A stretch of DNA of 64,000 bases from Minutocellus sp. GHC0000111 (Eukaryota). Of the stretch, positions 44,830-61,986 are shown piece by piece. The notes below the pieces were generated by a model. The model was not told the origin of the DNA and did not search any database. It was given only the letters and a program-made list of their open reading frames with translations. The first letter of the stretch is position 1; each line of letters begins with the position of its first letter. Position numbers and translations under genes: made by a program. The stretch is from positions 3,720,001 to 3,784,000 of the forward strand of contig OZ361260.1 of NCBI GenBank assembly GCA_977018835.1, in the 5' to 3' direction.

Positions 44830-46372
44830 TCATTCACTCTTTCCAACCACAACAAATAGGTTCCTTGCGAGCCTTCGAATTGCTCTGACCTTCAGTGCAT
44901 TCATTTCCTCGACATCAGCTGAGGTGTTGTTGTCGTCATTACTACCGGCACCATTTCCACCCTTGCCAACTCCAGCAAGTCTCTTGGCGAATCTATCAAC
45001 GTCAAAGCTCAGGGGCAACTTGAGGCCAATTGCACTCGGGTTCAGCTTTCCCATCACCGTCTTTACAACCTCCGAGAGCGGCATGTCACCGAGCTTGAGC
45101 CCTTCTTCGTCATAATCATCATCGTCTCCTTGGTTGCCATTCGGGACCATCTTGCTTCCTTGCCGGCGATAATGTATACCACCAAACGGTGGATCGATAA
45201 TCACTGCCGCTTGTTTAGAACCATCAAGGCCATCTGATCGAAGCTCAGCAAGTAAGGAATCCAAGGCAAGGAGGGAGTCTCCACATCGGAGAGAGATATC
45301 AACATTCGATGCGCCCGCCCTTTCTTCGACATTTTGCTTCAGGAATTCGATTCTGCTTGAATCAATCTCATATGCAATTACTTTGGGGAATATCTTGCAC
45401 AGCCCCATGGTATTGCCTCCAACGCCAGCAGTCATATCGATTGCAACTCTTGATTCTTCTGCTTTCGATTTTTCGCCAGTAGTCATATTATTGGCAAGGA
45501 CTTTGGCCATGGCAAGAGCGCTCGTTGCGTCAGTCAGGGAATAAGTTCCAACCTCGTCGGCATGCAGTAAATGCTTCTTACGTTTCGATCCCCAAGCATC
45601 GTTGTTGGTATCCGCGAAATCAAAATCCGTGAGTCTGCAATACCAGACATTATTACGCTGCTCATCTTGATACATCTCAACTGATGAATCAAATGCGGCT
45701 GAATTGCCTCGAACAACCGTGGTGAGGTCTCTGCCTCCGAGCAATCGCCTCATTTTCTCATCAGTCATTATATTGCCAACATCGAGACCGCCGACGGCAT
45801 TCCCTCGTTCTCTCAGTATGCTCACTAACTTGGTGCATGTTCCTTCCAAGTCAATTGAATTGCTCCCACCCTCGTCTTCTTCTTCGCCCCGAAGACTCTG
45901 GACGAGACCGACACTTGCTCTAACATTTTCCTTGTGCTCACCAACGACAAATATGGCATCTGCATGCCGCGTTATGAAATCCAAAAGTATAGACTCAGTC
46001 TTCAAATTCCACTCTTTGGAGAGAGGAAGCACATCCATTGGTCTATTGGGCTGCAACCGCGCAAACATGTGAAGTTCCTTGGGACATTTCTTGACGAGCC
46101 AGGGCACAGAAGCGCCACTTGATTCGTCGGATGTCTTATTTTGTTCATCACAATCGTCAGCCTTTCGATTTTCTCTTCTCCGTCGCAACTTGCAATAGTT
46201 CTGTCTAAGTCGATAAATCAACCGCTCCTTCAACGCCTCTTCCGCATCGTGTAACTTGCTCTTGTATTCTCCATTGTTGTTAGCAACAAAGTCCTCGACC
46301 AACTTGACAGCCCTTTGCCGACCGGCATTAGTCAGCGATACAATATGTGGAGGCTTTGATCTATTGCTGATA
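44830..46372 (-). pseudogene. 3' part of a TGS1-like (cap guanine-N2) SAM methyltransferase gene, split by a transposon
   Basis: TYSLT, IDMTAGVGGNT, AYEIDSSRIEFLKQN, IDPPFGG. The ORF start in the track lies inside the transposon end. Confidence 0.7.
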
Positions 46373-48264
46373 CTTACGAAGTCCGTTTCGCGAGAAATCG
46401 AGCGCAGGGCCGGGACCAAAAAATGTCGATTTTTGGGCCCGCAACCCGGACACGGACACATGCATGTAAAGCCGGAACCATCAAAACTGACAAGAGAGCA
46501 CTACACATGCATGTACGGCATGTGTGTGTAGTAGCACAAATATAGCTCGAATCTAAATAATCTAGTATTATTTTAAACATAACATAACTTAAAAGCACCG
46601 CAGGACTAATTATCCATGGTTGGATCAGCAGGAGGAGGAGCGATAATTTTCCCATCTATCCGAACCATGCCATTTTCAGTCGGCCTGAAATCCTTTCGCA
46701 CCCCAACATGAATGCCTTCACCGTTTCCAAGAAAATCATTGTTGCCTTTTGCAACGATTACCTTCTTTGCAATTCTATGAGCCTGGATGTATGCCGATGC
46801 GATCTTCCAGTTTTCCAGCCCCATCCAAACTTCCTCCGCTGCATCCCAAGTCTGATCTTCTGTCAAAACCTTCAGCCCCTCCCGATCGCGGCTCAACATT
46901 GTATGCCGCTTTGACATGCAAGGGAAAACAGACAGATCAAGAACATTCATATGGGGCATTTGCGGGGCCTGAGGTTCCCAACGCCATCCCTTGTCCCGAC
47001 AGTATCCTTCCACATATTCCACAAATTCAGTCTCGGCATGGGGCCCAGCATTGTCGCCCTGAAAAATAGGGACATAGCCTTCAAACTTTCCACCAGGTCC
47101 GACCAAAGCCTCAACATCCGGAAACATCTTGTTCTCAAATAAAGCTTTCAGTGGGAACTTGGGATTATCAAGGGTGCCATGGCTGCATCCAGTCACCGCG
47201 CAATCCACAAGGTATAGATCGTCTTTCTTCCGAACCACCGGGCCGCAATATTTGATTCTACCATCTGCCTGCCGCACCGCCTCCCTTACCATCTGCCTCG
47301 CAATTTTATGCGCCTGAGCCCGAAAAAGTCCAAGCTTGAACGCAATGCCGCCATTCTCAATGCTGTCAATAAAAGCCAAGGCAGTGACAGCCACCACCAT
47401 GCACTTGTTGATGTGATTTCGGTGATATGCCGAGAAGGACCGAGGATCAATACCCAATTCTGCAACTTGCTTGGCATACGATCGAAGAACCAAGCCCCAA
47501 AACCACTTCTCATCGAACATAATAAGGAGAAACTTGCCACCGCCGAGCCCCCAATTGTTTCGGAATTTCCGCGCAAATGCCAAATGTTTCTCCATCTGAT
47601 GGGTAGTAAGGAGAGGGATGATCCTTTCGGCATAGTACCGGAACCCTTCCCGCGACATTATCCACCGCCGTATTGCCGAGTAGGAACACCAAAAGTTGAC
47701 ATCCACCTCCAGCTCCCGCCAAGATTCCCGAGGATTTCGTATCAGAGCATCAACAATAACATCTCGAATGTATGGCTGCATAGCCAGATGAGATCTCCTC
47801 TTCATCTCCCACATCGCCTTCTCAGATGCAGGTAGAGCACCATACGCCTTCATCCATCCCGAAAATCGTGCACCATGCTCTGCGCTGGACAGCACCGAAT
47901 AGTCCACCTTTGCCTGCTCCCTGCACTTGGCAATTGCAAAGAGACATGGTGCAGTATACCGCCGGGTCGCCGTTGCAAGATCGTCGATGACAGAACGGAA
48001 GGCGGCCGAATCAGATGAATCATCGGCACTCGTTGGGAAGCAGTATACCGGTCCAAGTGCGACGAACGCGTCCATTTGATTAGAGCCGCTGAAATCTAAA
48101 GTCTTATCCGAATTATTGTTTCACATGAAGATAAATCAAAATTAGAGTAAAAATAGCCATTTTCTTAAATATTTCAGCATGACTATTCTTCGAGGCGCTT
48201 TTCAATCCCCTCGAAAGCAGTCAAAAACCGGGCGCTCGATTTCTCGCGAATCTGACCTCGTAGG
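46373..48264 (-). mobile_element. Mariner-like DNA transposon, 1892 bp, 33-bp imperfect TIRs, TA flanks
   Basis: TA|CTTACGAAGTCCGTTTCGCGAGAAATCGAGCGC (46373-46405) versus GCGCTCGATTTCTCGCGAATCTGACCTCGTAGG|TA (48232-48264), 29/33 match. Confidence 0.9.
46606..48075 (-). CDS. IS630/Tc1/mariner transposase, DD38D
   Basis: FDEKWF..QGDNAGPH..QAPQMPHMNVLDLSVF with 38 residues between the second and third Asp; motifs resemble plant-type DD39D mariners. Confidence 0.9.
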   Translation of the reverse strand: MDAFVALGPVYCFPTSADDSSDSAAFRSVIDDLATATRRYTAPCLFAIAKCREQAKVDYSVLSSAEHGARFSGWMKAYGALPASEKAMWEMKRRSHLAMQPYIRDVIVDALIRNPRESWRELEVDVNFWCSYSAIRRWIMSREGFRYYAERIIPLLTTHQMEKHLAFARKFRNNWGLGGGKFLLIMFDEKWFWGLVLRSYAKQVAELGIDPRSFSAYHRNHINKCMVVAVTALAFIDSIENGGIAFKLGLFRAQAHKIARQMVREAVRQADGRIKYCGPVVRKKDDLYLVDCAVTGCSHGTLDNPKFPLKALFENKMFPDVEALVGPGGKFEGYVPIFQGDNAGPHAETEFVEYVEGYCRDKGWRWEPQAPQMPHMNVLDLSVFPCMSKRHTMLSRDREGLKVLTEDQTWDAAEEVWMGLENWKIASAYIQAHRIAKKVIVAKGNNDFLGNGEGIHVGVRKDFRPTENGMVRIDGKIIAPPPADPTMDN

Positions 48265-48811: not shown

Positions 48812-51800
48812 ATGATAATAGTGCGCAGAGCCATTCTTCTCGCTGTCAACATGAGCCTGGAGCTTTTGGCCGCGCTCCAGAACTCCAGCAACACCTTAAG
48901 TACTGGTGTCATCCTCGACGTTGGCAACCAGACGTATCAGGTGGTTGGTGGGAATTTCACCATAGTCCCCGGCAGTGACTTGGAGATCGACGTGGTCAAT
49001 CAAACAAATCTCGATGAAGGATTGAACGACAGTACTTCTACGCCCGGCGAAGACGAGAACCCAATCGTTACACCAGGAATACCAGCAGATATCGACGCCG
49101 ACGATGAGATCGAAATCTACCCAGAACCACGAAATTCAACTGATGTAGTGGGAACCTCGGATTTGACCTATCATGACGAGACATGGCATGGAAATCATCC
49201 CGACGATGAGCCATCTCGTTGGGTTCTCATTGGATCAGCACTCGACAATCTCGGCGAAGAGTACTGCATGGAAGTCAGAATGCCCGTGCATAGTGGGCAG
49301 ACCATCGGTGTGAGCATGTGTGATTGGGCGAAGGAAGAGCAGCTCTTCTTCTGGGAGGATGGAAAACGCATGCGACCTTTCCTCGATATTAGTCTGTGCG
49401 TTGACGCCAACGACGGATCGTGGCCAAGCTTGCGAGACTGCGAAGAGAATGGACCGCACCAACGCTGGGATGCAGGTAGTTTTGACGGAGTGCATCTCTC
49501 CCCAAGAACGCACCCGGACTCATGCCTAAAGCCCACCGAAGTTTCGAGAGGTTTCATAGAAAATAGCTCGATGGAATACGGGAGAGTGCGCAGAATGGAA
49601 GAAACAGAATTTTTCAGCAGAAGGTTCGGTCAGTGGCGAAACAGAACAGCAAGAAGAGCAGAACGAAGATGCCATTTGGCCCTCCGAACCAACGGCGGCT
49701 CTTTCTGAATACGTCTTTTTGATCAATCGAGCGCACGATTATGATGATCCCGATGCCAAGTGCTTGAAGGCGAATGATAGAGGTGAAGTTAAGTTGGTCG
49801 AATGTGAGGAAGACAATTACAAGATGCACTGGTTGAACGATGATTTTGATTTGTCTGATGAAAGTGCAGCAGTCCGACTAAGACCCAGGTCTGATCCTAG
49901 CACTTGCATCACTCGAGGTGATATTGACAAGCCGCCTTCGGATATTCATTGCTGTGTTGACGATACTCGCCTCTACATGAGAAGTTGCGACGGGAGCTCA
50001 GAGCAGATGTGGCTATACGACCGAACTTTTGGCTACCTTTCTCCAGCAGACTACGAGACCCTATGCATTGCATCTTGGTTCAACCCACGAGTAGGTCTCT
50101 CCTATTGTGCATTTGGTGCCATCGAAGAACAGTCATATGGTGAATTCCGGTTTGACCTAGTCGATCCAGCGAGCGGCTTGACAAGGCCCGCAGCCGTCGC
50201 CGAGGACGCCGACAACATGTTCTGGGTTGAGGCTACTGTCAGTCAAATACCCCGCCGGCTTTGGTGCAGTGTTTCTGATGGAGGACAAAATTGCAAGGTG
50301 GTGGCCGAACAGGATGACGACGGCGATATTGACGAAGATTTTGAATCTGTCGATGCCATATGGTTGAGAGACGACAATGACCGTCTTCGGTCTGCGTCCG
50401 ATACCAGTATTTGTCTCACCTACGATAGTGCTTACAGCAATCTGTATGCCACAGCATGCTATCAGTACAGAGAGGAGGAGCAGATTTGGCACTATGAAGA
50501 CAGAGGGAACATGGAACTCTCTCCAAAGGGAAATCCAAGTGTTTGTGCTGTGGCAAAACTTGGTGATGATCCACCAGTAGAAAGTTGTGGCAGCAGAGTC
50601 AACAAACAATCGTGGAGATTTGTTCCGTTCAACAACGAAACCCCCGAAGGTCCTTCTTCTTGTGATGAGGGCTTAGTAGATACAAATATGATTGTTTGGG
50701 AAGGCGGTGAAGGCTACTACTGTGTTGAAGCTAGCGACGTTGATGAAGGAAATGAGCTCGAACTCAAGAAGTGCGACGCATTGAATGAAAATCAGCTCTT
50801 CATCTTCGAAAACCATAAATGGATGTCCAAACGCAATCCTGATCTTTGCATACAAGCGATCAAAAATGAAGATACTGAGGGCATGAGGGTTCCCATTTTC
50901 ATGCCATGCGATGGGTCACTGAAGCAGAAATGGATATTTGGTGAAGATGGTGCGATAGTGTGGGGCAAGGACGATAGTCTCTGTGCCTCCTACCACTTTG
51001 ATGGCGAAAGGTCTTGGTTCTATAATTTCGGCCTGAAAACTTGTTCCAATGAAGAAAACAAAGACCAAATGTTTCAGCTTGTGAACCCAAAGGATTACAG
51101 TACTCCGACGCTGAACTATGTCCTCTTGTCCACCAAGAATGATTTGTCCTGGGCGATTTCCTGCTATCCTGATCATGAGGGTAAGTAATACTAGTAGCGG
51201 AACAGTGTGTGGAACTGATCATCATGCTTAAAAGCTGGGAAAATCTCACTCACTGATCCATTTCCCTCTCTTCTGAATTTAATTTTCCGTAGAAAACACT
51301 TGCCCGGGTTACCGAGAGATTCGGCCGACATATGGTAAATTTTATGAGGGCACCAAATGGTTTATCGAAGAAATGAAGAACGGAATCCGTCTTCGAAGAG
51401 GTGAACCTCGAGGTCCAATGCTGAAGGTGGACGGGCAGACCCTTTGGAAGTACAACCCGAATAGTAAGGAGTTGAAATCAGTTGCGAACGGGCAGTGCAT
51501 AGACAATAGAGGGCAGATAGGCAAACCATGCGAACCCTTTTGCGAAGAATGCGACTCATATTCCTGCTACGGTTCTACGGGCGACCTTACAATGGCGGAG
51601 TGCAATGGTAAGGTAAGGCAGCAATGGGTCCTCCAAGACGCCGATGACTTTTTGTACAGCCATGGTTCTGACTTCGCAGGCAAGCCTAACGAGAATGACT
51701 TCCATCTGTTGGTATCCTCGAAGGATAACGACTTCTGCGTTGGTGCAAAAGATCCATATGCGAGACACCCCGACGGTGAAATACTGCTCATGAGATGCAA

Positions 51801-52167
51801 TCCAGCTGATCCAAAGCAAGTATGGACTATCGAGACCGTCGAAGGAAGGAAAAGAATTCGTCTGAAGGCCAACCTCAGCTTATGCATGCACGTTTCTAGA
51901 GTAGAGCTGTTACAAACGCTTCATCTCGAGGAGTGCAATGATCTTCAGCAAAAGCAACACTGGAACCATAAATCAGAAGACGGTGAAATATCCGCCGCAA
52001 AGAATGGCAATTTGTGCGTTGGATTTGATTATGAAGACGGTTGTCTCCAAGAGGGAACTCCGCTGCAGCTGCTTCCTTGCAGCAACGGAGAGAGTCCTGA
52101 GCAAAGCTTTGATTTGGTGCGACCAAATGCTTACTTAGAGCGTCCGAACAGAGGTCGAACGTGGTGA
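48812..52167 (+). CDS. Large multi-ricin-B-lectin (beta-trefoil) repeat protein; intron 51181..51292; frameshifts near 49580-49710
   Basis: Repeated C-x(10-15)-C..QxW/F units (CDWAKEEQLF, CEENGPHQRW, CDGSSEQMW, CDALNENQLF, CNGKVRQQW, CNPADPKQVW). A GTAAGT..TAG intron joins ORFs 49719 and 51373 in frame. Confidence 0.75.
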
Positions 52168-52305
52168 AAACAGTAGAGTACATGAGGGTTAGAGACATAG
52201 ACTTGAACCAGTAGAACATTGATAAAACTTGTACGAATATCTGATCTCTATCTATTTACTCTATTGAACTCTCTTTCTCCGCCATGTAAAACTTTCCACC
52301 ATCGA

Positions 52306-52370
52306 CTGCGTATGGAATGTCGGAGAGATTGAAATTCGTCCCTTTCAATCGCTCGTCATTCTCCATCGAG
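52306..52370 (-). promoter_or_regulatory. Putative eukaryotic SECIS element
   Basis: Minus strand reads ATGGAG-A-ATGAC-GAGCGATTG-AAA-GGGACGAATTT-CAATCTCTC-CGAC-A-TTCCAT: helix I, AUGA/GA core, helix II and apical AAA. Folded by eye. Confidence 0.65.
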
Positions 52371-53771
52371 CGAAATCAATGATGAACCGTTGCCGAACAT
52401 AATTAGCGCTTTATTAACAACCGCTGCAATGAACGCAAAGGCAATGGCAGTAAGGCCCGCTCCAATCACATTTCTGTTCTTCAAGGTTTTCATTACAAAC
52501 ACTTTGATTCTGGTTTCCTGCTTTGACATGAGCTGACGTCCGGTTGCATCTACAAGCTTGGTAATGGCCTCGAAAGCACCCACAACTGCAGAAGCTTCTA
52601 CCAATAATTCTTTTCCTCCCTCCTTTACAACATTAGCGCGAGCTTCACTAACCTGGTCATCGTCAAATGGAATGGAACTACAAAGCGAAGCAAATAGTTC
52701 CAAAGCTTGCTCACGGGCCTGAGATGTGGGCGGGCATATAACCTTCATCTCGTTCCCGTGGCCTTCATGTCAATACGTGCACTTATGTGCCTTTGCAGTA
52801 GCTCCCGCCACCGTCTCCACGTCATGTCGACATACGGTGGAACATTTTGAAGTCCCCAGCTCATTCCATCGCAAGAGCATATCCTTTGCGGGCAGATATA
52901 AAGCCGCATGGAACGATTGAAAGAAGATAAAGTCTTCGATGGCCAAAATTGTGCAACGATAGGGCGATGGTGAGTATGGTAATTTGGCCCACGTCTCCGC
53001 GGGAATCTTCTTACATTCGGAACCGTCTCGAATAACATCCGACGACACAAAGAATGGCGAAAAAGCAAATTCCTGATTATACTGTATTCCTTTGAGGAGT
53101 AGTCGGTATCGGATGTTGCTTGGTGGAGGTGCACCCTTGATCTCGTGCCAACTTGGAAGGGCAGGGACATTGACGCCGTTTCCCAAGCTCAAAAAGAGCA
53201 CATGCAGAGCATGCGAAATGGACGACAGCAAAATTATCTCACAGTAAAGAGCCCGGGCAGCCAAATCTGCGTCTTCTCTTGTCATGGGTCTTCCACACTC
53301 CTCTTCGAATGATTTGTCATACTGATCCAAAATGCCACAGGACATTAATGCAGCCACGGCATCTTCGTAAAAGAGCTGATCGATACGTTCCTGATGACAT
53401 ACGAGCGTATGGACGATGGTCACGAGGCACTTTTCAACCTCTTTCGATAACTTGCTACCGGATTCGCCCTCGGTTGGGAATCCAGGCTTGTGCTTCTGGC
53501 TTGCATAAATGTTGTAGAATCGAGCATTCGGCATAGGGCAGACCATGGTGGATCGTCGCTCGGCTACATTTTCATGACAGTGCTTGCATTTGAGCAGAGC
53601 ATCTCGAGCGCAGAGAGCGACACCGAGGCGGATGTTTGAAGGCAGGATAGTCCCAGAGACGGTGCATAGATGCGTGTTGAAGGATTCGGCAAAAGCATGG
53701 AGGTCATGTATCCGCTCCTCAGCTGTTTGACCTGGCTCCTCGGCACTAATCGACTTTGGGAAGAGGCGCAT
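52356..53771 (-). CDS. AhpD/CMD-like alkylhydroperoxidase-related protein, probable selenoprotein (471 aa, Sec at codon 334)
   Basis: ORFs 52770..53771 and 52356..52748 are in frame across TGA 52770-52772, giving VETVAGATAKAHKCTY-U-HEGH. The second half has LVEASAVVGAFEAITKLVDATG and a hydrophobic tail. Confidence 0.8.
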
Positions 53772-56700: not shown

Positions 56701-57777
56701 ATGGTCATCCGATCATACCCGCGCTTTATTCTGATTGCATTTCTTCCAACGGTTTTGAATTGTGCAGGCGCTTTCGTGCTCGATGGTGTGCTAGTGTCAA
56801 GGCCCTCACATTTAACGAGAAAGAGGAGCAGACAACTTGCCTCTACTTTCACCGACATTGGAGACAACAATGTGACGCCACTTGAGCCATCTGATGACGA
56901 CGAAAACACCGATTCCGAAGCAACATTATATGGATGGACCGACGACCAGTTCAAGTCTTGGTTTGGAAAGGAGTTGGCTGCTCATCCACTCATGGATAAG
57001 TGTCCTCGGATGCAAGCCACGGCACCCAGGGCAGCAACGGCATGGAGGGCACGATATCGTGGCAACCCAACCCTATGGAGACGAGTCTTTACGGTCGATC
57101 GCGTTATCAAGGAGTTGGTCGAAGCTGCGCCGATATTGGATGCCGTGATTCAGATTGTCGATGAGGCTGACATCGACGAGACGGGCAACCTCACGGCATT
57201 GGACTTAGCAAGTGGACGGGGCTTTTTGAGCATGTATCTGTCTGAAATTCTGCCAAAGGAGAAGGTGGAGAAGATTATACTGGTTGACAAGGCATGGCCA
57301 ATGTGCAATGCAAACGAAGTATTGCCACATCAAATGTCATGGGAACACATCTATGGAAATCGGACAAATGCTTTGGAAGATGGCGATGGGAGTTCATCTT
57401 CTTCGTCGACCTACTTTGACACATGGCCAATCCATTTGCATACGTCCAAACCAGATCTCAAGCAAAAATGCACCAAACGACAAATGAAGAAGTTCATGTT
57501 CGATCGAGCACCCGGTCCTGTGCTGATTTTGGCGGTCCATCTCTGCGGCGCATTGTCGCTCCGTGCGGTGGAAATGTTCAATGACTATCCAGACAAGGTT
57601 CAATTTCTCGCCCTAAAGCCCTGTTGTTTACCTCCAATGGCCTATGCCAATAGAGGCGATGTGTTTGAAATCGGCCAGCATAGCTTTGATGCCTCTGATG
57701 TTTGTGCTGTTGGTCGTTTTTTGGGCACTAATTATGCACTTTGGGCACTAATTATGCACCACAAACGGCGCAATTGA
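56701..57777 (+). CDS. SAM-dependent methyltransferase-like protein, plastid-type presequence, possibly 3'-truncated
   Basis: ALDLASGRGFLSMYL, ILVDKAW, ILAVHLCGALS, LKPCCLP; presequence ..NCAGA-FVL. Ends in a 20-bp tandem repeat. Confidence 0.7.
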   Translation: MVIRSYPRFILIAFLPTVLNCAGAFVLDGVLVSRPSHLTRKRSRQLASTFTDIGDNNVTPLEPSDDDENTDSEATLYGWTDDQFKSWFGKELAAHPLMDKCPRMQATAPRAATAWRARYRGNPTLWRRVFTVDRVIKELVEAAPILDAVIQIVDEADIDETGNLTALDLASGRGFLSMYLSEILPKEKVEKIILVDKAWPMCNANEVLPHQMSWEHIYGNRTNALEDGDGSSSSSSTYFDTWPIHLHTSKPDLKQKCTKRQMKKFMFDRAPGPVLILAVHLCGALSLRAVEMFNDYPDKVQFLALKPCCLPPMAYANRGDVFEIGQHSFDASDVCAVGRFLGTNYALWALIMHHKRRN

Positions 57778-57796: not shown

Positions 57797-57999
57797 ATGG
57801 GCTTCGAGACGTCGCTCTTCGTCTCCCAGCCTGTGGACGACAATTTGACGTGCTCGCTATGTCTCAACGTTTTTGACAAACCGACGACAGCATGCGCAAA
57901 TGGACACGTCTACTGCCTGAAATGCCTGACCAACGCCAAGAGGCGAAGCAACGCCTGCCCCGATTGTCGCCAGCCCATGATCGACCCGCCCCCTCTTAA
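57797..57999 (+). pseudogene. 5' part (RING finger) of a TRAF-type ubiquitin ligase gene, split by a transposon
   Basis: MGFETSLF..CSLCLNVFDKPTTACANGHVYCLKCL..CPDCR (C3HC4). Confidence 0.85.
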
Positions 58000-58123
58000 G
58001 AGGGCGCTGTCCATAATTTTCCCCGTTTTTAATCCCCCTTATTCTTATTTCTTATGACGAGCGAAGCATGACAAAAACTCGACCCCACCATGAGAATCGC
58101 CGCTCTGCCCCCTCTTCATTACG

Positions 58124-59457: not shown

Positions 59458-61986
59458 TTACAAGCTGCCATTTTCTCTCAGTATCGCCGGCATCCAAGAG
59501 CTAACATCATTTGCCGATACACCGAAGTTTGTCTTAGCTTTCTTATTATTTCTTGCAGATTTCTTGTTGCTGCCTGGGCTTCTGCGCTTCTTTCCGGCGT
59601 AAACGACAACGTCGTCAGCATCGTCGCATTGACATTCAGCCCGAGTGTGGCCAAGCTGCTTGCATTTCTGACACTGCTGGTCAATCTTCTTCTTGCGGCC
59701 AGGCTTTGCTGGTTTCGCCTTACCAGCAGCTAGGGCCCTGTTCTTCTTGTACACATAGTCCTTGTCGTCTTTCTCGCTTCTGTTTCGCAAGGCTGCTCGA
59801 AGGCGCTTGCTGTCGCTCTTGCTCTTTTTGTGCTCATCGGTGCGCTTACGCGCAAGGTCGCCCTCGAGCTTCCGGTCAATTGCATCGAATCCATCTTTTC
59901 GGGTAGGAGAATCCCTCGATCCCAACTTTCCAAGAACTCGCTCATTGAATTCCGTACCCAGTGACTTGTGGCCAGCGGCTCTACTTGTTGCATTTGGGTA
60001 GGCGTCTGAAGCAGTCAAATTCGGCCTTTTCCCCATCGTGAACTTCGTCACCATCCCGTTGAGCTGTTCGACGCCGGTGGTAGATTCCTTCTTGCAGTTG
60101 GAGTCGGCAGTATTCTTGTTGATTCTCTTGGTTATTTCAAGCGTCATCTTGCGAATCGTGTCGTCACTAATCTCCAATATGTCGCCATCGAATTGATTCC
60201 CCGAGCTCCATTCCTCATCGAGCTTGCCATCACTCCAATCAGGATGAGCAATGCTGAGGCGAATCCAATCACACGTGTTGGTGGTGCAAAAAGTGTGAAT
60301 GCCACATTGGTGACGAACGACGGACTGGAGTTCTTTCTGAAGGAGGGCCAGATGACTTTGTTTTTCCTCCTCGGACACAGCACCATCGGGCTGATCGAGA
60401 ACGCTGTGCTTGTGCCGATCAGTAATCTTCGAAATGTCCTGTTTCGTCCGATTGATGCGTGGTCGGGGGATGGCATTAAAATTTTCAACTCCTTTGCATG
60501 CTTTTCGAAAGCCTGAGTCAATTGAATTGCTCAGATGATTAAAGTCACGGCAAAGCTCAACACCAGAAGCCAACTCATCACCTACTATGTCTTCCTGAGC
60601 GGCTGCTGCCCTAGTGATGCCTTTGCTATCGCCATCGGCAACGTGCTTCTCAACGAAAAGAGGACACGCCTGCACGCTTCCTTCATCGTCGACCAGAAGA
60701 TTCCGTCCAACATTCTCGGCCAGATGCTCCTCTGCCACACCGGGGGAGCAGGAAGAGTTGCGATAGCAGAAGCCATCATGGTCGTACAGGGCCAGCATCT
60801 CATCCTTGCTCATGTTTTTGAGCTCACTCGGCGTTATTGGATTGCCGGCTTCCCGCCTCTCCCTCAATCTTGCATTGCAGGCTCTCACGCAACAGTGGCA
60901 GCTTGCCTGAGAGATTCCCTTGTCAACAACAAGGCCAGTTTCCTTGTCTACGGCAAATACCGCTGCAGCAGAGCCAGTGTAGCAATGGCCGTAGTCGCGT
61001 TTGAGGGCGCTGCCGTCTTGGGCCACCGCAACCACCGCCGCCGTGTGCATCTCGCCGCCTTGTTCAAACTCAACAGTCTTGCTGCTAGCGGCACATGCTT
61101 TTGCCCTGTTCTCGTCAATGATTTCATCAGCTGCTTCAATAGCCGCTGCTCTGCATTTCTTTTCCACCTGTCGGGCACTCTTTTCGGTCGGATGGACGAT
61201 GTCGGCCTTCGTGCAGAAATTCATGAAGCGACTTGCGCACATGGCCTCATCTTCCGCTGCCTCCATCAGCTCCAAGTTCATTCCAGCCTGACTTCTAGAA
61301 TGCTTTCTGCCGGGGCACACAACTTCTGACCTCTGGCCGATCCAAGTGCAAAAAGAAAAAGGTTGGTTGCATCTGTCGCATCGCCATTCAAATGTGACGC
61401 CGAATCCACGCCGAACTGGCTCGGCCGAGAGACACAGATTGCCGCACGATCGGTGGAGATTCTGTGCGAAATCACACAGCTGCTTCATCTCAACCACAAT
61501 TCTTTTGCCGTTGAGCTGCACGCCGGTGATGTTGGGACGATCGGTAGCGTTGGCGGTGGGAGTAGATGACCGACCGCCCGAAGAATTCTTGTCGGAATAA
61601 CATTTCAGTGTCGCGTTGAGATGGGGCCCATGCTTTTCATCGTCCTGGAAGCAATTTTCAGGCATGGTCGGCAGTGATCGCTTGCCATTGCGTTGAGAGC
61701 GTGGGCTGGCGTTATCGGCTATTCTGGAGAAGCGGTAGAAGGGCTTTGCAACGTCAAGGCCTGATATTTTCTCTGGACGTCGTCGTTGGATGTTGACCTC
61801 GTGTCGTGTTGGGACGTGTTGAAGAGATGATCGAACAAGAGAGATCTCTAAGCTCGGCGATGCGCCACCGCGCATCAAGATGCGGACAAGCTCATCAACA
61901 GTGTAGTAAGTACATCTGACGTCGTCTGGGAATGAGAGCAAGAGTGAGAGGATTGCCTCCTTGGCGTTAGCACGTGATGTTTCCAT
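59458..61986 (-). CDS. Kolobok-type DDE transposase with a C-terminal CCHC knuckle
   Basis: VAQDGSALKR..ETGLVVD..CHCC..CYRN..VADGDSK..NH..TTGVEQLN; CQKCKQLGHTRAEC; 842 aa uninterrupted. Confidence 0.8.
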   Translation of the reverse strand: METSRANAKEAILSLLLSFPDDVRCTYYTVDELVRILMRGGASPSLEISLVRSSLQHVPTRHEVNIQRRRPEKISGLDVAKPFYRFSRIADNASPRSQRNGKRSLPTMPENCFQDDEKHGPHLNATLKCYSDKNSSGGRSSTPTANATDRPNITGVQLNGKRIVVEMKQLCDFAQNLHRSCGNLCLSAEPVRRGFGVTFEWRCDRCNQPFSFCTWIGQRSEVVCPGRKHSRSQAGMNLELMEAAEDEAMCASRFMNFCTKADIVHPTEKSARQVEKKCRAAAIEAADEIIDENRAKACAASSKTVEFEQGGEMHTAAVVAVAQDGSALKRDYGHCYTGSAAAVFAVDKETGLVVDKGISQASCHCCVRACNARLRERREAGNPITPSELKNMSKDEMLALYDHDGFCYRNSSCSPGVAEEHLAENVGRNLLVDDEGSVQACPLFVEKHVADGDSKGITRAAAAQEDIVGDELASGVELCRDFNHLSNSIDSGFRKACKGVENFNAIPRPRINRTKQDISKITDRHKHSVLDQPDGAVSEEEKQSHLALLQKELQSVVRHQCGIHTFCTTNTCDWIRLSIAHPDWSDGKLDEEWSSGNQFDGDILEISDDTIRKMTLEITKRINKNTADSNCKKESTTGVEQLNGMVTKFTMGKRPNLTASDAYPNATSRAAGHKSLGTEFNERVLGKLGSRDSPTRKDGFDAIDRKLEGDLARKRTDEHKKSKSDSKRLRAALRNRSEKDDKDYVYKKNRALAAGKAKPAKPGRKKKIDQQCQKCKQLGHTRAECQCDDADDVVVYAGKKRRSPGSNKKSARNNKKAKTNFGVSANDVSSWMPAILRENGSL

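Follow-up and report, generated by a model that had tools for sequence, protein, structure and literature searches.

Two neighbouring open reading frames on the minus strand of the window, the 64,000-nucleotide stretch of Minutocellus sp. GHC0000111 DNA analysed here, quite probably constitute a single gene, in which an in-frame TGA is likely read as selenocysteine (Sec) by means of a predicted SECIS element in the 3′ UTR, and which likely encodes a 455-residue, two-lobed, tail-anchored protein of AhpD fold, most likely reducing hydrophobic (lipid) hydroperoxides at the membrane surface. The parts of this reading differ in strength: insertion of Sec at codon 334 is very likely, the protein is highly probably a thiol/selenol oxidoreductase, and we lean only slightly towards a hydroperoxide as its main substrate.

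One reading frame across an internal TGA

The original prediction that the two listed ORFs (333 aa and 130 aa) are one frame broken only by a TGA was confirmed, and the gene is delimited by the following features.

53771-52356, minus strand: frame as assembled, 471 codons, with the TGA as codon 334.
52770..52772, minus strand: in-frame TGA, predicted Sec334 of C-x-Y-U; TGA in the homologous locus L001, a stop in 68 of 76 clusters and Cys in four.
53771-52403, minus strand: likely true coding sequence, 455 aa once base 52414 is discounted, with a TAA stop at 52405-52403.
52414: extra base, absent in the X5 and X10 contigs, which shifts the last codons.

The sole internal stop of the minus-strand frame 53771->52356 is the TGA at 52772-52770, in the context ETVAGATAKAHKCTY*HEGH. 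The upstream half matches positions 193-238 of the bacterial family model NF041238 and the downstream half positions 278-341, and the joined protein (E 2.7e-14) scores better than either the upstream (8.7e-4) or the downstream half (2.9e-9); since both halves match one model, in order, and the joined score beats each of them, the continuity of the frame exceeds chance.

The length of 471 aa proposed at the outset was not borne out. Base 52414 is absent from the contigs of two independent runs, X5 and X10; four database proteins of the downstream half (P0008, P0028-P0030) terminate in V[VA]IKR at 114 aa, database copies of this half close behind the hydrophobic segment at 114-116 aa, and one of them, P0029, equals the window sequence apart from that end; the frame of L001 also terminates at the 455-aa-type end. 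On these grounds the protein is likely 455 aa long, and the 19 additional residues in the window likely stem from an indel in the assembly or from a rare allele. With base 52414 present, the frame of the window stops on the UGA of the SECIS core itself. P0012, a database copy near identical to the window, carries an exact 76-residue tandem duplication in its N-lobe, absent in the window, which is either an assembly artefact or an allele.

Conservation at and around the TGA

L001, the one homologous locus found in JGI metagenomes (one of 182 candidates; about 65% identity to the window gene), reads TAC TGA CAT at the same codon, after which its open frame continues into HE[G/S]HGN. Between the window and L001, dN/dS is 0.14 upstream of the TGA and 0.17 downstream, at a dS of 1.5-2.0, and of the seven residues that separate the TGA from the following Met, five are conserved; these ratios show purifying selection on both sides of the TGA. 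The orthologue comparison proposed with the original prediction, namely TGA or Cys at this column with conservation on both sides, came out in its favour.

A word-based search (7,996 candidates scored) returned six matches, all six ending at Cx[YF], as do 23 of 23 near homologues once cluster members are added. A profile search, run exhaustively, yielded 133 clusters at the 50% identity level, from which 57 falling short of the motif (fragments, or proteins cut or skipped before it) were set aside. The other 76 clusters extend as far as the motif, and in 68 of them the protein ends precisely at column 334; these 68 have 20-51% identity to the window (median 28%), and their stop is known by the protein end. 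One of them, P0095, looks misaligned, which leaves 67. The eight clusters that continue past column 334 comprise four with Cys (P0068, P0069, P0146 and P0159), one with Trp (P0043), one with Tyr (P0060) and two that are apparently misaligned. A TGA codon was read directly in three sequences only: the window, L001 and a contig of X5. The X5 contig has no letter that differs from the window over 52050-52801, with just 29 letters beyond the codon; an X10 contig also spans the codon, with no change there among the changes listed. No contig from the RNA runs bridges the TGA or covers the 3′ UTR, positions 52770-52776 being uncovered, a gap that counts neither for nor against the reading; a word search focused on the region did not recover a full-length form either. 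In one cluster, members of 448 aa were considered as Cys read-through forms and proved to be N-terminal extensions ending at the same CAY.

In homologues the UGA is aligned with Cys (the four clusters above) or Sec (TGA in bacterial members, which were selected by pattern). The idea that the TGA occupies the second-Cys place of an AhpD-type CxxC is supported by the NF041238 match, the TGA of L001, the 68 of 76 stopping clusters and the four Cys clusters. Variants of the motif occur as well: P0136, P0139, P0156 and P0160 have lost the first Cys and still stop at the Sec column (TxxU/NxxU-type), and next to them stand the Cys forms P0146 and P0159, which read TxxC or AxxC; all of these are one-residue active sites.

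A candidate SECIS element in the 3′ UTR

52312..52366, minus strand: candidate eukaryotic SECIS, with helix I, an AUGAC core at 52359, a 10-bp helix II with one mismatch, AAA, and the 3′ core CGAC at 52322-52319.

Eukaryotic SECIS elements are described as two helices with an AUGA/GA core and an unpaired AAR (PMC13188914, in part), and all of these are present in the candidate, which lies about 45 nt past the likely stop and 410 nt past the TGA, is rare by pattern and comes from one full 3′ UTR; no SECIS family of Rfam matched at E<=10. A pattern written after the candidate was seen gave two matches in 128 kb of strand (the candidate and one inside a coding region), a mean of 0.5 matches over 10 shuffles, and a presence in 3/2000 local shuffles. 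Folding of the candidate yields a z of -2.2 to -2.9, and folding of the entire 241-nt 3′ region a z of -0.38. Among the changes listed for X10, the 3′ core becomes UGAU and one G-C pair becomes G-U, the core being kept, and the apical part carries a small insertion and one substitution; over 52171-52310 the same contig differs by at least 17 substitutions and at least three indels. The sequence of L001 ends 24 nt past its stop, at GUGAU, which may be the start of a SECIS core. A 3′ SECIS candidate is present, as an element predicted by pattern scan and fold z.

Predicted fold, active site and membrane anchor

52758..52817, minus strand: AhpD-type catalytic helix hairpin with E319, C331, Y333, U334 and H338, at PA0269 spacing.
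53538..53588, minus strand: N-lobe C62-x-x-C65 and C78, a second conserved cysteine cluster, from alignment columns.
52416..52469, minus strand: predicted C-terminal transmembrane helix, residues 435-453, by Kyte-Doolittle hydropathy, with a short basic end in relatives.

A structural model built from 54 aligned sequences (pLDDT 82.8, pTM 0.85), which leans on its bacterial rows, the eukaryote-only alignment giving the fold at pLDDT 35, predicts a tandem, two-lobed AhpD fold with catalytic helices 315-328 and 332-345 in a block of pLDDT 82-93. The structure closest to the model is that of human Sestrin2, which matches across both lobes (Z 16.8, rmsd 3.6, 245 aligned, 12% identity); next, on the C-lobe, come AhpD-like chains and the debrominase Bmp8 (Z 7.4-10), unrelated rows reaching at most 3.5. 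Foldseek ranked the same families high, with no match at E<=0.001. By sequence, a PDB search with a shallow alignment found nothing, the 19 PDB matches at E<=10 place alkyl hydroperoxide reductase-like chains first, and Pfam gave nothing significant for the window protein or for 58 family members.

The proton relay of PA0269 is described as E36/C48/Y50/C51/H55 (PMC3141380, in part); E319, C331, Y333, U334 and H338 have equal spacing, and all five residues of the relay are found on the two-helix hairpin of the model. The same E-x11-C-x-Y-C-x3-H spacing occurs in AhpD-like peroxidases (P. aeruginosa PA0269, D. radiodurans 6k40 and M. tuberculosis AhpD), on which the modelled C-lobe superposes with Z 7.4-10. 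These peroxidases are single-lobe Cys oligomers, whereas the window protein is a two-lobe chain with a predicted Sec and anchor. Sestrin2 shares with the model the tandem AhpD-like duplication and the two-lobed, pseudo-symmetric fold, but it is active in its N-lobe and by the first Cys only (C125, with Leu at the second place) (PMC4674687, in part), whereas the window protein bears the full motif in its C-lobe, with the second position as the constant one. None of the 58 members matches a Sestrin Pfam model at E<=0.01, and no Sestrin stands among the 19 PDB matches; judged by sequence and by which lobe is active, the protein is not a Sestrin.

In the filled rows of the N-lobe alignment, C62 is present in 43/51, C65 in 43/50 and C78 in 41/49, and the CxxC is found in 28 of 46 bacterial rows, a pattern that suggests a redox relay or a metal site. 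At the other end of the protein, the original prediction of a C-terminal membrane anchor held as a hydrophobic tail in all seven near eukaryotic copies: the Kyte-Doolittle 19-mer value is 1.94-2.6 in these 7/7 tails and at most 1.23 in 36 bacterial C-termini. The window protein is accordingly predicted, from hydropathy, to be tail-anchored. The anchor is not family-wide, the hydropathy of the last 45 residues being 0.3-0.8 in P0060, P0068, P0143 and P0159.

Bacterial relatives and origin

A review table counts NF041238 among the prokaryotic CxxU selenoproteins and gives data from the Sargasso Sea as its first sighting (PMC13188914, in part). A GTDB motif scan returned 121 stretches, mostly read-through CFYUT genes. 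Relative to the NF041238 cutoff of 175 bits, the window protein (53.2) and L001 (47.4) fall below and all five bacterial controls score 212-475; 41 of the 58 family members match the model at E<=0.01. Profile comparison with 36 bacterial sequences gave an HH value of 99.0% over 295 columns (residues 37-415), which rose to 99.9% over 307 columns with the deeper 58-member profile, which bears out, for an AhpD-related selenoprotein family, the earlier suggestion that both halves resemble bacterial alkylhydroperoxidase-related proteins. All 46 bacterial rows retain E178 and H338, two residues that the search pattern did not include. When GTDB was scanned with the eukaryotic alignment, 39 candidates resulted, none related, and a plasmid search gave no match.

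The two families are colinear over residues 37-415, have CxxU at the same column and share R315, E319, H338 and E178, as well as the N-lobe CxxC in many bacterial members. They differ in that identity is about 20%, the motif is CTYUH in the window and CFYUT in bacteria, the window gene has a eukaryotic-type SECIS candidate in its 3′ UTR and a eukaryotic host, C310 is near invariant in its family (57/58 members), and its clade carries a C-terminal anchor. Two other proteins invite comparison. AhpC_b, an algal selenoprotein of likely bacterial origin, also has prokaryotic homologues and a 3′ UTR SECIS, but it carries a thioredoxin-type AhpC_TSA domain (PMC7539508, in part). Bmp8 shares the AhpD fold (Z 9.5 against the window model), but it is bacterial, single-lobed and 14% identical to the window protein.

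In a C-lobe tree of 68 rows, the eight eukaryotic rows group together (100/99) within the long bacterial proteins and away from the 14 short AhpD-like ones, with L079 as their sister (98/93); the branch is 2.49 long, six rows are under half filled and the sampling is biased by the motif. The best bacterial HMM scorers include L003 and L065, whereas the tree places L079 by the eukaryotic clade. The eukaryotic proteins likely descend from the NF041238-type bacterial family. Horizontal acquisition, as suggested at the outset, is no more than plausible for the gene, since the tree depends on a long branch; that the acquisition was recent or private is contradicted by a deep family of at least 67 clusters.

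Among the bacterial genes, L019 and L020 are selenoprotein genes of NF041238 type that stand in tandem on one Dehalococcoidia chromosome, at a distance of about 1.2 kb. The 14 short genes (L008, L014, L031, L033, L037, L039, L048, L049, L062, L066, L070, L071, L074 and L080) are single-lobe and AhpD-like, with a core of about 180-230 aa and the same CFYUT motif, and in the tree they group with one another, separate from the long family.

Annotation and range of the family

The family is deep, with at least 67 clusters stopping at column 334, and contains paralogue-like clades as well as stop-column and Cys forms. Of 20 distant clusters looked up, two name organisms, both of them diatoms, Thalassiosira sp. 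AJA248-18 and Seminavis robusta. In the gene models of both (KAL7533061.1 and CAB9528885.1), precisely the stretch with the motif is missing and the protein continues behind it, from which we infer that they contain invented introns dodging a TGA. The expectation that standard annotation would split or truncate such genes agrees with the ORF list of the window, the Cx[YF] protein ends and the two diatom models that skip the motif.

Genomic context

On the plus strand, a convergent neighbour occupies 48812-52167. Its three ORFs follow one another, carry ricin-B-type beta-trefoil lectin repeats and are likely exons of a single gene with GT..AG introns, of which one lies at about 51181-51291. The stop of this neighbour and the likely stop of the selenoprotein gene are only about 240 nt apart. 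The minus strand carries two transposase-like ORFs, both long and intact, one at 46606-48075 with a Tc3/Tc1-type HTH (PF01498, below cutoff) and one at 59458-61986 that is Mutator-like (PF20700). The window also holds an RNA cap guanine-N2 methyltransferase-like gene (44830-46461, minus strand), a Methyltransf_32 gene (56701-57777, plus strand) and a RING finger ORF (57797-58057), and no tRNA gene was found in it. For one neighbouring gene, the best atlas cluster is 100% Eukaryota, most commonly Bacillariophyta. With this cluster and the intron-like GT..AG gap of the lectin-repeat gene, the window has a eukaryotic look, and the two organisms named among the distant clusters add to making a diatom host likely.

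Proposed mechanism and alternative readings

Diatoms are reported to have 20-44 selenoprotein genes (PMC7539508, in part). In the proposed mechanism, the anchor would hold the catalytic domain at the membrane and the peroxide would be hydrophobic. The selenolate of Sec334, positioned by the E319/Y333/H338 proton relay, would attack the peroxide; C331 would resolve by closing a selenenylsulfide with Sec334; and a thiol donor would then reduce the Sec334-C331 bond, possibly by way of the N-lobe C62xxC65. The role of attacker is assigned to Sec334 because its column holds a stop or Cys in nearly all members and C331 is replaced in some, namely in 4/67 stopping members and in 4/4 Cys forms. Sestrin2 reduces cumene hydroperoxide and not H2O2 (PMC4674687, in part), a preference that by analogy is compatible with a lipid peroxide role and is no proof of it here.

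Selenium could also serve a different job on this scaffold, and the protein might then act as a reductive dehalogenase in the manner of Bmp8, or else re-reduce a partner, for instance a peroxiredoxin, in the role of disulfide relay or redox sensor. Deiodinases carry out Sec-dependent dehalogenation, Bmp8 matches the C-lobe of the model as well as the best AhpD-like chains do (Z 9.5, rmsd 3.7-3.8, about 160 aligned), and the bacterial profile matches Bmp8 weakly (E 0.003). A relay would fit the description of AhpD as an AhpC adaptor and of PA0269 as only a weak peroxidase (PMC3141380, in part). We regard these alternatives as serious but less likely, given that the sequence ranking puts alkyl hydroperoxide reductase-like chains first and that the five-residue proton relay is complete in the window protein; the literature on Bmp8, debrominase and AhpD yielded nothing for comparing residues.

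The remaining explanations dispense with Sec. Reading of the TGA as an ordinary residue (Trp or Cys), or leaky termination, would agree with the Trp of P0043 and the Tyr of P0060 at column 334 and with the Rfam search, which returned no SECIS match; it is very improbable, as the family has its catalytic Cys/Sec at column 334, the gene is followed by a hairpin of SECIS type, the bacterial family is listed as a CxxU selenoprotein (PMC13188914, in part) and, for Trp, all three Trp codons of the gene are TGG. To a similarly small degree one may suppose that the halves are made separately, by a stop and a restart at Met342, or that an intron removes the codon. A Met does stand eight codons past the TGA in both the window and L001, frame-keeping GT..AG pairs span the codon in both (12 at shared offsets), and the motif stretch is absent from two public diatom gene models. 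Yet the codons from the TGA to that Met are conserved as protein, catalytic H338 included; each candidate intron at a shared offset would remove C331 and H338; bacterial and Cys-form relatives are single chains; and contigs of the RNA runs follow the window without any joint over 52618-52769 and 52777-52928, an argument that is weak because such runs can contain DNA. Finally, a private nonsense mutation or a sequencing error in a Cys gene might be suspected in a window with another likely error, at base 52414, but L001 has the same TGA at dS >1.5, 68 of 76 clusters stop at column 334 and both halves are under selection, by which the pseudogene or sequencing-error reading is effectively refuted.

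Significance

Literature searches on selenoproteomes (of algae, diatoms and protists), AhpD and Sestrin gave, among the titles and abstract openings listed, none that indicates a eukaryotic AhpD-type selenoprotein, a mention under a "hypothetical" name, e.g., in Aureococcus, being possible. The terms AhpD, CMD and carboxymuconolactone are absent from the main text of PMC7539508, and AhpD is absent from the parts covered of PMC2375036 (parts 1 and 8 of its supplement 2 included) and, by term search, from PMC6627142 and PMC4561486; a term search of the preprint 10.1101/2022.07.06.499078 found none. The selenoprotein lists consulted give the AhpD-type fold only for prokaryotes (PMC13188914 and PMC7435645, both in part). 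The Ostreococcus hypothetical proteins 1-3, considered as relatives, look unrelated by eye.

What is described here is likely a novel eukaryotic branch within a selenoprotein kind known from bacteria, one that differs in SECIS type and, in the window clade, also has a membrane anchor. We are moderately confident of a broader statement: that this is a large and deep eukaryotic selenoprotein family missing from the algal surveys consulted (at least 67 clusters below 50% identity to each other, with relatives in Thalassiosira and Seminavis) and the first eukaryotic selenoenzyme on the AhpD/Sestrin fold; that it came from a bacterial selenoprotein, swapped the in-gene SECIS for one in the 3′ UTR and, in the window clade, acquired a tail anchor with which to work on lipid hydroperoxides as a membrane reductase; and that truncation or invented introns hid it from gene finders. 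Novel families of eukaryotic selenoproteins are rarely found; three were reported when 137 algae were surveyed (PMC7539508, in part). The family would expose a systematic annotation error in diatom genomes and add to estimates of selenium demand in marine algae. It would also make two questions testable: whether a selenoprotein can pass from bacteria to a eukaryote with a change of SECIS type or needs a Cys stage, and what Sec adds on the AhpD/Sestrin scaffold, for which natural Sec, Cys, SxxC and TxxU-type variants could be compared.
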